A stretch of 64,000 nucleotides of DNA, from NCBI GenBank assembly GCA_016794465.1, contig JAEUKA010000024.1:7511-71510 (forward strand), in the 5' to 3' direction. Every line of letters starts with the position of its first letter. The stretch's first letter is position 1. Positions 34,150 through 38,225 of this stretch are shown here, in pieces. Both the position numbers and the translations under genes were made by a program. The notes under the pieces are model-generated. The model had not been told where the DNA came from. It did not search any database and saw only the letters and a list, made by a program, of their open reading frames with translations. This DNA is from Myxococcales bacterium. GTDB lineage: Bacteria; Myxococcota_A; Polyangia; Palsa-1104; JAEUJZ01.

Positions 34150-34854
34150 TTAAAAGTCGACGACGCGAACCCCTAAGTCTGACGCTGGCTCGCGAAGCCG
34201 GACGCCGATGATGACTCCGGCGGTGATGGCTCCGGCTGCGGCAATTCCGCCGAGAAGACCCCAAAACCAGGCCTTTTTGTAGACCGGCTTTTCTTTCTGC
34301 TTGGCCGCGAGCAGCAGCGCCTCGTCGGCCTTTTTGCGCTCAGCCTCCCGAGCAATCGCCAGCGCCTCGGCTTCCTCGGTGCGTCGCTTGGCCAGTCGCT
34401 CGGCCGCTTCTCGCTCCGCCGACGCCTTCTCGGCATCCAGGCGCGCCCGCATCGCCGCCGCATGCGCCTCCGCCTCGGGAAGCAGCGCCGACTTGGGATC
34501 GTCTTTGAGAAACCGCTCATACAGCGCCAGCGCCTCTGCCCAGTGCCCAGCCTTGCGATGCGCCTGCGCGATATTAAACAGCAGCGTCGGCAGCTGCCGC
34601 TTTTGATAGGCCAGCTGAAACTCGCCGATCGCCTGATCGTAGCTGCCGGCCGTAAACAGCCGCGTCGCACTGTCGAGGATCTCCCGCAGGCTGCGACTGT
34701 CCTTGGCCCCAGCTGCCGGAGCCGGAGCCGGAGCCGTTGCAGTCGCCGTCACCGTCGGATTCCCAGCGGACGTTTCGCTGACCTGAGGCTCCGCTGCCGC
34801 CACACCCGCAACAAACAGGATGACGCTAGCGAACCACCGGGATGTCATCGACAT
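34150..34854 (-). CDS. TPR-like secreted/membrane protein, paralog of 2032..2997
   Basis: Signal peptide, conserved LLFNIAQAHR block, Ala/Glu-rich coiled region, C-terminal TM. Confidence 0.6.
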   Translation of the reverse strand: MSMTSRWFASVILFVAGVAAAEPQVSETSAGNPTVTATATAPAPAPAAGAKDSRSLREILDSATRLFTAGSYDQAIGEFQLAYQKRQLPTLLFNIAQAHRKAGHWAEALALYERFLKDDPKSALLPEAEAHAAAMRARLDAEKASAEREAAERLAKRRTEEAEALAIAREAERKKADEALLLAAKQKEKPVYKKAWFWGLLGGIAAAGAITAGVIIGVRLREPASDLGVRVVDF

Positions 34855-35917
34855 TGTCACGCGACGGCTTGGCGGCTGGCTTGCTGATGGCTTTCTGGAC
34901 CGGCTTCCCGGACGGCTTGACGGTCTGCTTAACAGTCTGTGGATTGACCGGATCATTCTTTTTATCGGGACTCGCGCTTGGGGTAGCTGCCGTCGCCACG
35001 AGCTGCACCGTTCGATCGTATTGCTCGTGAAGCTCGATCACCACCGTCTGTTCGGCGTAACCGGCCAGTCGCAGCAGCACTTTGATCGGCGGACCGCCTC
35101 GGTCACGCTCGACCAGCCACGGCGTTGTCCCGAGCGACTGCTGATCGGACACTTGCACGATCTGGGCACCCGCTGGCTCGCTGCGCAGCGCGATCTGGAC
35201 TTTCGTCGGGACCGCTCTGGAATCCGCTCCCGCTGCGACTGGCGCAGAAGCCGGCGGGGTCACTGTGGGCTTCGACGGCTCGACCTGCTGCGGCGCAGCG
35301 GGCTGGAGCGGCGAGTGCCTGGGCATCCGTGCCGTCACCGCAAACACCAGCACGCCACCCAGCAAGAGCGCACCGACGATAGCCAGCAATGGAACCGACG
35401 AGCGCGGCGCCGGTGCTGGCGGCGGTGGCTGGACAATCACCACCTGCGCTCCGGTTCCCGTCGAGCCGAGGCCCAGCTGCTCCAGCTCGCTGAGAATCTG
35501 CTTCATCGACGGGCGCTCGTCCGCCTTTTTCGCCAGCATCTTGTGGACCAGCGTCTCGATCTCGGCCGAGACATGCGGCGCCACTTCCCGCAGCGGCTTC
35601 GGCTGCTCGACGATGTGCTGGGCAATCAGATCCCCGGCGCCAGTGCCCACAAACGGCGGACTGCCCGACAGCATCTGGTACAGCATGATCCCAAGCGAAT
35701 AGACATCGGTGCGGTCGGTCATCGCAATCCCGCCGCGACACTGCTCCGGCGACATGTAAATCGGCGTGCCGACGATTGCCCCCGTCGTCGTCTTCATCAC
35801 CTCGCCCGCTTCCGGGTCAACGACCTTGGCGATTCCGAAGTCGAGCACCTTGGCCCGCTCCCCCGCCTGCGACTCCGAGTCCGGCACCAAATACACGTTG
35901 TCCGGCTTCAGGTCTGT
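34826..35917 (-). pseudogene. C-terminal fragment of disrupted Ser/Thr kinase (begins at DLKPDN of the catalytic loop)
   Basis: TDLKPDNVYLV...DFG...PIYMSPE; N-lobe missing here and found at 37791..38225. Confidence 0.8.
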
Positions 35918-37790
35918 CAAATCTAATCATACATTTCTGTCGATAAACCGTAGTTTATACCCAGGTAAGCAGCTGGTAATTATTGACATTTATTAATATT
36001 TATACGTGCTTTTAATTACATTTTAACAAATCAAGCCAGTGGCAAACTTGACAGGGGATGGAAGTTGTTCTTGGTGCTCGATGCAGTTCGACCGCTCGCG
36101 AGCAGTGTGCGCGCTGTGCTCGCGCAGCCGATGAGTGGGCACGTGGGTGCGGCTCCGTCGCAGAGCTTGCAGGCACAGGGATTGCATTTTGAGCGGCTAC
36201 GGACGTTCAAACACTGCGCGTACCGACTGTAAACCGCAAGCAAGGAACTCACGATGGCCAAGAATGTTGAACACGACTTTTCGCCTGGTTTTGATCTCGC
36301 GAAGGAGATCAATGACGAAGCTGGAATCAAGCCTACGGAATATGCCCCGTATCGGTTTCCCGTAGAATTCCAGATTAAAATGTTCATCATATGCACTGAG
36401 AAGGGCGACCTCGATAAGGCATTGCACAACGATCCGGTCTTACTACAAGAGATCAGGGATGTCGTTAGTGCAGAAGATGGCGCGGTTGCGGCGAAGCGAA
36501 AGGCGCTCGTTAAGGCCTTTGGCGGCGCACTTGAAGATATCAACACAATCGCCAAGAAAGGTCAGCTGCAAGAGGCCAAAGAGCTCTTTGAGAACGCATT
36601 CTCTGAGAAGACTTTCAAGCTCCATGCCGATCCAATCTGCGAGCTGATGGTTGCCGGCGCGGAGAAGCGCTGGAAGGCCATTGTGAAGGCCAAATCCGGC
36701 TACAGTCGCTATCAGTTTCAGACAGCGGCAAAGTTCGTCATCCTCACCGGTGGCATCGCAGTTACCGTCGGTGTGAATGTCGCGGTCATTGCGTCATCGG
36801 GCTTTCACTTCGGTGCCGGCATCGCACTGTCTGCCTATGGATTGGCGCGGACCTCAGCTGCACTGCTCAAGCTTACTATACAGTGCTTTCAAGGTGTCGA
36901 TTCTGCGATTGAGGATGCCTTGCGTGTCTTGGCAAAGGTCGAAAAGAAGAAGAAGCGATCGGACTGGATCTCCACCCCTGAGCTATTGGCCGAGACGATA
37001 TTCAACGCGATCGGCAATGAGCTATCTGGTCTTGGCGAGTTCTTCGATACGGTCAAAAAGGCCCAACATAAGGCCGATCTAGCGCGCAACAAGCTATATG
37101 GCACAAAGGTCGCACTGCATCGGCTATCAGAAAAGCTCAACGCGCTCATGAAGGAACAAGACGCAATCGCGACCAAGCTGGCGATCCTCCAGGCTGCTGG
37201 CGCACTGGACAGCATTCCCAAGAAATATCGGTTTAACCCAGCAAAGATGGTAGAGACACAAAAGAAAGTTACAAAGCTATTCAAGCAAGTCAAAGCTGCT
37301 TATAAAGCCTACGAAGAACGAGACACCAAGCTAGCGGAAGCCGAACAAGCGCTTGAAGCGCTTGCGAAGCTAAAGAGCAGCAAAGTCATCGGGGTGGTGC
37401 ATACCGGCACAGTGGTTGCGATGAAGGCACTGCTTCTTGCCGCCAGTGTCGCAACCATGGACTTTTCCTCTGTTGCGGACGCGGTTTCAGTCGGTTTCGA
37501 TCTCGGCTGTACGGTAGTCGATGCAGGCGGTGAGGTAGCTCTCTCCGCCATGGAGAAGCTCGAGATCAATCACGTCCTTGGCACCAGCGAGTTCAAGGCT
37601 TTCGCTCAGACTTCGTAGTCGCTCGCGGCGTTGGCCTGGCACGCCAGGCAGCTCGCGGCGGCATCCCACCCCTGATCTTCCATCGAAATTAGTAAGATAA
37701 AATACAATACCATCAGATCAGTTGCACTGACGGTAGCTGTGCGCTTTGCTGCGTCAGTTGGGAACAAAACACATTTTTACTGTAATCTTC
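35918..37790. mobile_element. ~1.87-kb low-GC insertion splitting the kinase within its HRD motif; AT-rich ends, carries one gene, no recombinase
   Basis: GC drops from ~66% to ~35-50%; kinase reading frame resumes exactly across the insertion (HR | DLKPDN). Confidence 0.7.
36254..37618 (+). CDS. Orphan 454-aa protein: Lys/Glu-rich coiled coils flanking a central pair of hydrophobic helices
   Basis: AAGGAA RBS; central FVILTGGIAVTVGVNVAVIASSGFHFGAGIALSAYGLA; lower-GC codon usage than neighbours. Confidence 0.6.
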   Translation: MAKNVEHDFSPGFDLAKEINDEAGIKPTEYAPYRFPVEFQIKMFIICTEKGDLDKALHNDPVLLQEIRDVVSAEDGAVAAKRKALVKAFGGALEDINTIAKKGQLQEAKELFENAFSEKTFKLHADPICELMVAGAEKRWKAIVKAKSGYSRYQFQTAAKFVILTGGIAVTVGVNVAVIASSGFHFGAGIALSAYGLARTSAALLKLTIQCFQGVDSAIEDALRVLAKVEKKKKRSDWISTPELLAETIFNAIGNELSGLGEFFDTVKKAQHKADLARNKLYGTKVALHRLSEKLNALMKEQDAIATKLAILQAAGALDSIPKKYRFNPAKMVETQKKVTKLFKQVKAAYKAYEERDTKLAEAEQALEALAKLKSSKVIGVVHTGTVVAMKALLLAASVATMDFSSVADAVSVGFDLGCTVVDAGGEVALSAMEKLEINHVLGTSEFKAFAQTS

Positions 37791-38225
37791 CCTATGAACT
37801 ACGCCTTTTTCGTGGGCGGCGGCGAGGGCGGCGGCGAGCTGGCGGGTGATCCGCAGCGCGTCTTTGCTGTCAAGCTTGCCGCGCTGGCTGAGCCGGCTCT
37901 TGAGCGACTCACCCTCGAGGTATTCCATCATCATGTAGGCCGAGCCGTCGGGAAGCTGGCCGAAGTCGTGCACTTTGACGAGCCCAGGATGATGGACCAG
38001 GCTGGTCGTCCGCGCCTCGTGCAAAAACCGCTGCACCGAAGTCTCGTCGGAGGTCAGCTTCGGATGCAGGACTTTGATGGCGACGCGCTGATTGATCGTC
38101 TCGTGCTGAGCCTCAAAGACGGCGCCCATTCCGCCTTGACCAAGCAGCTTGATGATCCGGTATTTGCCAATGCTCTGGCCAATCAGCGGGCTCGGATCGG
38201 CTTTGGGCTCTGTCTGGGCGCTCAT
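37791..38225 (-). pseudogene. N-terminal fragment of the same disrupted Ser/Thr kinase (N-lobe up to HR of the HRD motif)
   Basis: LGQGGMGAVFEA, AIKVL, ends ...EKGVVHR then reads into insertion sequence. Confidence 0.8.

Follow-up and report, generated by a model that had tools for sequence, protein, structure and literature searches.

In staphylococci, cassettes that resemble the staphylococcal cassette chromosome (SCC-like cassettes) and lack ccr are excised and circularized in trans by the large serine recombinases CcrAB/CcrC (PMC11470126). For GIsul2 and the CR2-sul2 unit, action in trans by a tyrosine integrase is reported (PMC9376610). Here we describe a 1,876-bp element, with a single gene and no mobility gene, that splits a Ser/Thr kinase gene of a Myxococcales bacterium (assembly GCA_016794465.1). 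It lies in a stretch of 64,000 nucleotides of contig JAEUKA010000024.1 (positions 7,511 to 71,510, forward strand), which was analyzed as a whole and is referred to as the window; all positions are those of the window unless another contig is named. We consider it probable, although far from certain, that the element is a recombinase-less, nonautonomous mini integrative cassette moved in trans by a serine recombinase, for which the type encoded nearby is the most likely source.

Several elements with serine recombinases are known to interrupt genes, namely, skin in sigK and SPbeta in spsM of Bacillus subtilis, and the fdxN element of Anabaena, which is associated with XisF. The element described here also sits precisely within a coding sequence, and its empty site and a circular form were both found in environmental sequence data.

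Results

A kinase gene interrupted within its catalytic motif

Two open reading frames (ORFs) on the minus strand match successive parts of the Pfam Pkinase model. The first (37713..38225) covers model positions 1-133 (E=1.8e-23), reads ...AAHEKGVVHR and continues with 25 unrelated codons to a stop. The second (34826..35920) covers positions 123-259 (E=1.3e-22) and runs from (LT)DLKPDN via DFG and APE. The kinase codons are broken at CAT AGG / GAC CTG, i.e., between R and D of HRDLKPDN, which is where an earlier note on this DNA had placed the cut. In a protein search, the fusion of ...GVVHR with DLKPDN... gave a 507-amino-acid kinase that is identical to a database protein (P0006; 100% identity, 100% coverage). 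The features of the interrupted gene are as follows.

37791 to 38225, minus strand: N-terminal part of the split kinase (residues 1-145), with a Pkinase match; identical to residues 1-145 of P0006, with a frame that runs into the element to 37713
34826 to 35914, minus strand: C-terminal part of the split kinase, identical to residues 146-507 of P0006; the kinase lobe is followed by a transmembrane segment and a PEGA-like tail
35915 to 37790, plus strand: inserted element, missing from contigs L016, L017 and L018; 1,876 bp here and 1,926 bp in the circular variant
35913 to 35914, no strand: left TC crossover dinucleotide (attL core), a 2-nucleotide (nt) overlap in the empty-site contigs and at the circle junction
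37789 to 37790, no strand: right TC crossover dinucleotide (attR core), with the same 2-nt overlap

The insert occupies 35915..37790, could equally be placed at 35913..37788, and carries its gene antisense to the kinase. Its ends read ...CTGTAATCT and TGTCAAATCTAATC..., respectively. The earlier note had located the right end correctly at 37790, whereas the left end, given there as 35918, is at 35915. Likewise, the contrast in GC content that it reported is real but was overstated (35-50% against ~66%), since the insert has 49-53% GC and its flanks ~62-65%. The values are 48.7% for the left end, 52.5% for the gene and 51.2% for the right end, compared to 59.8% for the whole window, and the minimum (40% over 200 nt) is found at the left tip, at 35900-36099. 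An imperfect direct repeat, CTGTCAAATCT (35914-35924) and CTGTAATCT (37780-37788), is present at the two junctions as reported, but the true repeat consists only of TC. In a variant of the element with 93% identity the two copies are weaker (CTGTCTAGTCT and CTGTAAGCT), and a target duplication of 9-11 nt was rejected because it is not kept in this variant and shrinks to the 2-bp TC core.

Scans with Pfam, NCBIfam, PADLOC and PHROGs agree with the previous observation that the insert contains a single gene and no transposase. An alignment with the paralogous kinase of the window (579..2030), which had been suggested as a check, showed 46% identity over the kinase domain and colinearity through HRDLKPDN. 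This paralogue is located on a foreign island, which is described below.

Three contigs contain the intact kinase gene (L016 of GCA_044230195.1, L017 and L018) and are 99.6-99.9% identical to the window on both flanks. In all three, window position 37789 is joined to 35914 with an overlap of 2 nt, and they thus provide the empty site in near-identical strains for which the earlier note had proposed to search. The dinucleotide TC occurs once in the empty site, once at the circle junction and once at each integrated junction. L019/L024 (WBZP01003111.1) and nine contigs of other runs (L025-L033) have the window variant inserted at this point of the kinase gene. The 93%-identical variant occupies this position in L010 and L012, with 140 of 143 flanking positions of L010 identical to the window. 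At least 12 environmental contigs, which come from different studies and were built with different assemblers, share this insertion. In the sequence index, 80 sample blocks contain the exact cargo protein, and the element is common across metagenomes of wastewater and activated sludge. Environmental populations include filled as well as empty alleles, and the insertion is recent and polymorphic. We found no further copy of the element in the window, in viral contigs, in 72,556 plasmid records (PLSDB) or in 50,697 phage records. Genome and metagenome scans returned only the same site or distant chromosomal homologues.

The element occurs as a circle

The variant with 93% DNA identity, whose cargo protein is 96% identical, was also found on wastewater contigs of ~2 kb. 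In L007, L008, L009 and L011, the right end of the element is joined to its left end via a single TC (...CCTGTAAGCT-TC-TGTCTAGTCTAATC...). L008 and L009 measure 2,053 nt, corresponding to 1,926 nt plus an exact terminal repeat of 127 nt (MEGAHIT, k=127), whereas L011 measures 1,981 nt, corresponding to 1,926 nt plus 55 nt (SPAdes, k=55). The start points of these three contigs differ and are arbitrary, so that closed 1,926-bp circles were obtained from three independent assemblies and with two assemblers. The runs positive for the circle are ERR712388, ERR712389, ERR712391 and the one behind ERZ1764618, and those with the integrated form include SRR14092350, SRR23073214 and SRR12350685. Terminal overlaps of the k length of the assembler, combined with differing starts, are the standard signature of an isolated circular component of the assembly graph. 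The isolation of these contigs further implies that circle (or tandem) junctions far outnumbered chromosomal junctions in those samples. Taken together, the empty site, the circular form, the lack of a mobility gene and the recurrence in at least 12 contigs support the first of two alternatives raised in the earlier note, a novel nonautonomous insertion element that disrupts the kinase.

A nearby island with the same apparent core dinucleotide

L016 and L017, two of the empty-site contigs, cease to match the window at 33082, and both lack the segment 1..33081. This island of >33 kb splits a TIG/FG-GAP gene, which encodes 577 amino acids in L016 and L024 and is cut to 352 in the window. It carries genes for the type VI secretion proteins IglE_N, VipB sheath, TssK/VasE, TssF, DotU and TssG and for an IcmF-related protein, as well as two Ser/Thr kinases with a tetratricopeptide repeat (TPR) partner. 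It has the appearance of a type VI secretion system made mobile by a serine recombinase. L017 ends exactly at the island junction, which suggests population heterogeneity at this point. Two features at the end of the island are of relevance here.

31865 to 33016 (or to 33043), minus strand: candidate trans-acting serine recombinase of 383-392 amino acids with Pfam Resolvase and Recombinase domains, at the very end of the island and 2.8 kb from the element
33062 to 33083, no strand: P half-site of the island (33062-33081) followed by the apparent TC core (33082-33083), at the junction with the truncated FG-GAP gene

The best NCBIfam matches of the recombinase are CcrB and XisF. The protein is unusually short (~383 amino acids). 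Besides the Resolvase and Recombinase domains, it has two more RD-like helix-turn-helix repeats; zinc-ribbon and coiled-coil domains are absent. Its homologues number 499, many of them 87-91% identical, and the exact protein is not on record under either of two start codons. The best-named homologues of the recombinase, like those of the kinase, belong to assemblies of Polyangia, Myxococcales and Haliangium. In contigs L037-L045 from other organisms, recombinases with 88-89% identity adjoin truncated FG-GAP genes and are accompanied by different cargo (a major facilitator superfamily transporter, an EndoU toxin). The recombinase-proximal arm is kept in these islands (L037, L045) as GA-C(A/G)TGAAC(A/G)G(A/G)GTTTAAG. 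These contigs represent a family of serine-recombinase islands that target the same FG-GAP repeat motif. In L045, two such recombinase genes flank one FG-GAP fragment of 234 amino acids, and one FG-GAP gene thus carries two islands.

The first bases that the island junction has in common with the empty site are TC; the apparent core of the island is therefore the same dinucleotide as that of the small element. The attP of the element and its attB in the kinase share nothing beyond TC. Serine recombinases act at a 2-bp crossover dinucleotide and require no other homology between attP and attB; the lack of further homology and of terminal inverted repeats therefore fits their chemistry. When aligned on TC, the attB sites in the kinase and in the FG-GAP gene agree at 27 of 62 positions, and at 21 of the central 42, with an empirical p of 0.003-0.008 against all TC-centered sites in the window. 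A half-site matrix was derived from island arms only (P from three islands, B from three and B' from one, weighted by type). Applied to the four arms of the element, this matrix gave p=0.0003 against composition-preserving shuffles (p=0.005 for attP alone and p=0.015 for attB alone). When the crossover was slid from -8 to +8, register 0 was the best of 17 for both attP (score of 3.9, next -2.8) and attB (-2.5, next -6.3). At the level of individual arms, the C-side arm of the kinase, GA-CCTGAAGCC (D-L-K), resembles the island arm GA-CATGAACAG (D-M-N), and the R-D-L-K DNA of the kinase, AGG GAC CTG AAG, resembles the island half-site GGA GAC ATG AAC.

Several genes around the split kinase are related to signaling. 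An M48 peptidase gene (38347..39420, minus strand) lies directly upstream, and a PP2C phosphatase gene (39551..40384, plus strand) is divergent from it. At its 3' end, the split kinase gene overlaps with a gene for a TPR protein (34150..34956), on which the disruption may be polar.

A conserved cargo gene flanked by noncoding arms

The element itself consists of three parts.

35915 to 36253, plus strand: left noncoding arm, with the P' half-site at its tip, an AT-rich block to ~36035 and then a GC-rich segment
36254 to 37618, plus strand: cargo gene ORF454, for a predicted helical-bundle protein of 454 amino acids with a conserved hydrophobic hairpin at about residues 160-215 (NVAVIASSGFHFGAG)
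37619 to 37790, plus strand: right noncoding arm, with a variable middle and then the conserved last 63 nt (37728..37790), ending in the P half-site

Between ORF454 and its homologue in the variant there are 10, 6 and 59 differences at first, second and third codon positions, respectively, with 16 amino acid changes, a pattern that clearly indicates purifying selection. No family was found for ORF454 among Pfam, NCBIfam, PADLOC, PHROGs and PDB sequence profiles, which returned only coiled-coil noise. A word-indexed search of 5.8 billion proteins retrieved only five relatives, whereas an exhaustive profile search gave 143 cluster representatives of 400-550 amino acids, none with a Pfam family or a nucleic-acid enzyme domain. 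The AlphaFold2 model obtained with 6 sequences was unusable (predicted local distance difference test [pLDDT] of 53), and we used the model based on an alignment of 57 sequences (pLDDT of 78, predicted template modeling score of 0.76). In this model, a small alpha/beta module at the N terminus is combined with long helices, and a hydrophobic hairpin of low confidence lies at about residues 160-190, around the invariant NVAVIASSGFHFGAG. The nearest natural folds of the model are the ClyA/Nhe/Hbl/Yax pore-forming toxins, and we propose on the basis of this model that ORF454 is a ClyA-like, pore-toxin-like and membrane-active helical-bundle protein.

Homologues with 42-43% identity are found in several Myxococcales assemblies at one fixed place, flanked by a TPR-PEGA gene on one side and ybaB-dnaX on the other. 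They show no sign of mobility, and more distant homologues are ordinary chromosomal genes. Because of these positions, we regard ORF454 as cargo and not as a transposase. In every host (the window, L001, L013, L014, L021, L035 and L036), genes of this family have a GC content ~5-14 points under that of their flanks. This is largely due to a composition rich in Lys, Glu and Ala, since the GC content at third codon positions is 84-92% in high-GC hosts. The corresponding value of 61% for ORF454 in the window may point to a lower-GC donor.

Kinase genes were also seen near other members of the family. In L001, an ORF of 155 amino acids that comprises only a kinase N-lobe (3169..3636 of that contig, minus strand) is located 2.4 kb from the homologue with 42% identity, and the same is seen in L004 and L005. 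The L001 ORF stops directly behind the HRD catalytic loop (...GIIHRDKMPSNVPSRNTQ*), without a subsequent C-lobe, and could be either the remnant of a similar disruption or a coincidence. L023 contains a frameshifted ORF454 copy (31% identical) 1.3 kb downstream of a frameshifted Ser/Thr kinase gene (2737..3824 and 10..1417 of that contig, respectively), the third case of a family member close to a kinase. An association of the ORF454 family with kinases (L001, L023) was not retained, as it is not separable from the high kinase density of myxobacteria.

The AT-rich block of the left arm contains small palindromes (ATAAAC-N4-GTTTAT and CCAG-N8-CTGG). Further inward, at about 36097-36124, lies an invariant near-palindrome of 28 nt, CGCGAGCA-N12-TGCTCGCG, which could be an operator, a hairpin of the 5' untranslated region or a feature of an origin. 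The surrounding segment, 36035-36253, is 93.6% identical between the variants, compared to a divergence of ~13% at the third codon positions of ORF454, and it probably has a function, either in regulation or as an origin. At the outer tips of the element, 87-88% of the positions are conserved (first 120 nt on the left, last 63 nt on the right). The central part of the right arm has been replaced in the variant, with indels, and shows 63% identity and 49 gap positions.

The element contains no terminal inverted repeats, long direct repeats, iterons or known origin beyond chance, and Rfam gave no match on either strand at E<=1. The RNA fold of the left end is not significant (z=-1.1), nor are the RNA or DNA hairpins of the ends, and the right-end hairpin is not kept in the variant. 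The left arm shows no coding pattern between the variants, and the small ORFs considered as immunity or mobility genes (minus strand of the right arm, plus strand of the left arm) are not conserved as proteins. Complementarity of the arms to the target is at chance level, the longest shared word being 7 nt, a length reached by 70% of shuffles. A consensus scan of L007 revealed no promoter across the circle junction.

Several element classes were rejected. A group I/II intron or intein was excluded given the lack of an Rfam match at E<=1, the antisense orientation of the ORF to the kinase and the length of 1,876, which is not a multiple of 3. A DDE insertion sequence or miniature inverted-repeat transposable element was discarded, as there are no terminal inverted repeats and the sole repeat, of 2 bp, is kept once in the circle junction. 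For IS200/IS605-type (HUH) elements or miniature derivatives of them, the end hairpins are neither significant nor conserved and there is no TnpA or TnpB. An integron gene cassette was dismissed as well, since the junction core is TC within ...AATCT-TC-TGTCAAA..., with no GTT core and no attC structure.

Discussion

We propose the following mechanism. The element exists as a double-stranded circle, in which attP consists of the right end, TC and the left end. Conservative recombination would take place at the TC between the Arg and Asp codons of the kinase HRD motif (attB), and precise excision would restore the kinase. The recombinase would act in trans and would most likely be a short serine recombinase like the one encoded at a distance of 2.8 kb, whose island has itself inserted at a TC core in the neighboring FG-GAP gene. 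The similarity of the R-D-L-K coding DNA to the island half-site would make it usable as a secondary attB. We have moderate confidence in the serine-recombinase chemistry and in the identity of the enzyme, which are suggested by the similarity of the att sites; this applies to a recombinase of this type and not to this particular gene copy.

A number of observations weigh against this mechanism. The direct identity of the P arms of element and island is not significant (p ~0.17), and neither attP nor attB shows significant dyad symmetry. The N-side arm of the kinase scores poorly, and a paralogous kinase at ~3500 scores as well as the target. The half-site matrix is crude and does not explain target specificity; it compares the P, B and B' arms, as the P' arm of the island is outside the window. 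In L019/L024, the element is present next to an intact FG-GAP gene with no island at that site, so that co-occurrence with this copy of the recombinase is not strict. Serine integrases normally require a directionality factor for excision, and no such factor was identified here. Finally, the excess of circle junctions would be a better fit to a maintained replicon or a tandem array than to a transient excision product.

Alternative explanations

The last point leads to an alternative that we consider unlikely, according to which the element is a tiny autonomous plasmid-like replicon, replicated by the host from the AT-rich, palindrome-bearing region and occasionally integrated into the kinase by a site-specific recombinase of the host or the island. 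It would account for the isolated closed circles in three independent assemblies, in which circle junctions far outnumber integrated ones, and for the contiguous noncoding region of ~500 nt, with its AT-rich block and conserved palindromes, that is in part more conserved than synonymous sites. Nevertheless, there is no Rep gene, no iterons or known origin, and no match among the plasmid and phage records cited above, and tandem integrated copies would leave the same assembly signature. This alternative concerns maintenance rather than integration and is therefore compatible with the trans-acting recombinase that we favor.

We give even less weight to a nonautonomous derivative of an IS110/IS1111-type (bridge-RNA-guided) or other circle-forming insertion sequence whose transposase would be located elsewhere in the genome. 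Such elements share with the one described here the circle, the lack of terminal inverted repeats, site-specific insertion and a 2-bp core common to donor and target, and the layout is alike, with a noncoding left end of ~340 nt, one ORF and a short right end. Against this stand the absence of a DEDD/IS110 transposase domain from the element and from the other window ORFs scanned, the lack of an Rfam match, the nonsignificant fold of the left end and a complementarity to the target that does not exceed chance (7-nt word, 70% of shuffles).

It is highly improbable that the element is autonomous and ORF454 itself a new kind of recombinase or transposase. In favor of this reading, ORF454 is the sole conserved gene of the element and is under purifying selection. 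However, its homologues with 42-43% identity occupy one syntenic place without signs of mobility, the 143 cluster representatives lack a nucleic-acid enzyme domain, and the modeled long helical bundle with its hydrophobic hairpin is closest to pore-forming toxins.

An assembly artefact, a sequencing error or an engineered gene-disruption cassette, the latter being the second alternative of the earlier note, might be suspected from the atypical GC content and the precise position within a catalytic motif, but is practically negligible in view of identical junctions in more than 12 independent contigs from different studies and assemblers, the wide environmental distribution, the natural 93% variant and the absence of a selectable marker gene and vector sequence.

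Implications

If the trans-acting model is correct, one cargo gene and an attP of a few tens of base pairs are enough for an integrative mobile element, which borrows its recombinase from an unrelated island. Elements of this kind are missed by annotation pipelines, as no mobility gene lies within them. The use of conserved catalytic-motif codons (R-D-L-K) as a secondary attachment site would permit a reversible, scar-free inactivation of a signaling kinase. The concrete attP/attB pair and the candidate 383-amino-acid serine recombinase without a zinc ribbon represent a potential compact integration tool. In addition, an uncharacterized family of 143 protein clusters with a ClyA-like predicted fold would be tied to horizontal transfer in predatory bacteria.

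A more far-reaching and doubtful idea is that short serine recombinases of Polyangia-type myxobacteria run an integron-like cassette economy, in which single-gene circles of ~1.9 kb, without recombinase or Rep, persist free and move into and out of specific codons of signaling genes, in the present case those of the HRD catalytic loop of a Ser/Thr kinase. The cassettes would then serve as reversible on/off switches of kinases and as vehicles of pore-toxin-like genes. If true, this economy would be the serine-recombinase counterpart of integron cassettes, and the element would be the smallest integrative element or replicon described for Myxococcota.

Relation to described elements

The closest precedent of the element is the group of SCC-like cassettes mobilized by CcrAB/CcrC (PMC11470126). 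Both contain only cargo, have a circular excised form and undergo site-specific recombination within a gene, with a serine recombinase on a neighboring element, and CcrB is the best NCBIfam match of the island recombinase. Unlike these cassettes, the element is 10-25 times smaller (1.9 kb, one gene) and resides in a myxobacterial host. It is located in a separate gene 2.8 kb from the recombinase island, with a different attB and not in tandem, and its dependence on the recombinase is suggested by att-site similarity only.

As in the case of skin, SPbeta and the fdxN element, the insertion lies precisely inside a coding sequence and excision restores the gene, and the neighboring recombinase also matches the XisF model. 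In contrast, those elements are 10-135 kb long and have their own recombinase, and no developmental control is known for the element described here. Integron cassettes are similar in that they consist of a single gene and a recombination site, form a free circle, lack a recombinase of their own and depend on the enzyme of a platform. The present element differs from them by the absence of attC and of a G/TT core, by a kinase target instead of attI/attC, by the implied serine rather than tyrosine chemistry and by its long 5' noncoding region. With IS110/IS1111 elements it has in common the lack of terminal inverted repeats, a 2-bp core, a circular intermediate, a sequence-specific target and a long noncoding end, but it lacks a DEDD/Tnp recombinase, and neither guide complementarity nor a bridge-RNA-like fold was detectable. 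As for its cargo, the ORF454 model, a long helical bundle with a hydrophobic hairpin, comes nearest in fold to the ClyA/Hbl/Nhe/Yax alpha-pore-forming toxins. The element is set apart from the SCC-like cassettes, from GIsul2 and CR2-sul2, from skin, SPbeta and the fdxN element and from integron cassettes by its size, its location in a gene separate from the recombinase's own site, its target within a kinase motif and the phylum of its host.

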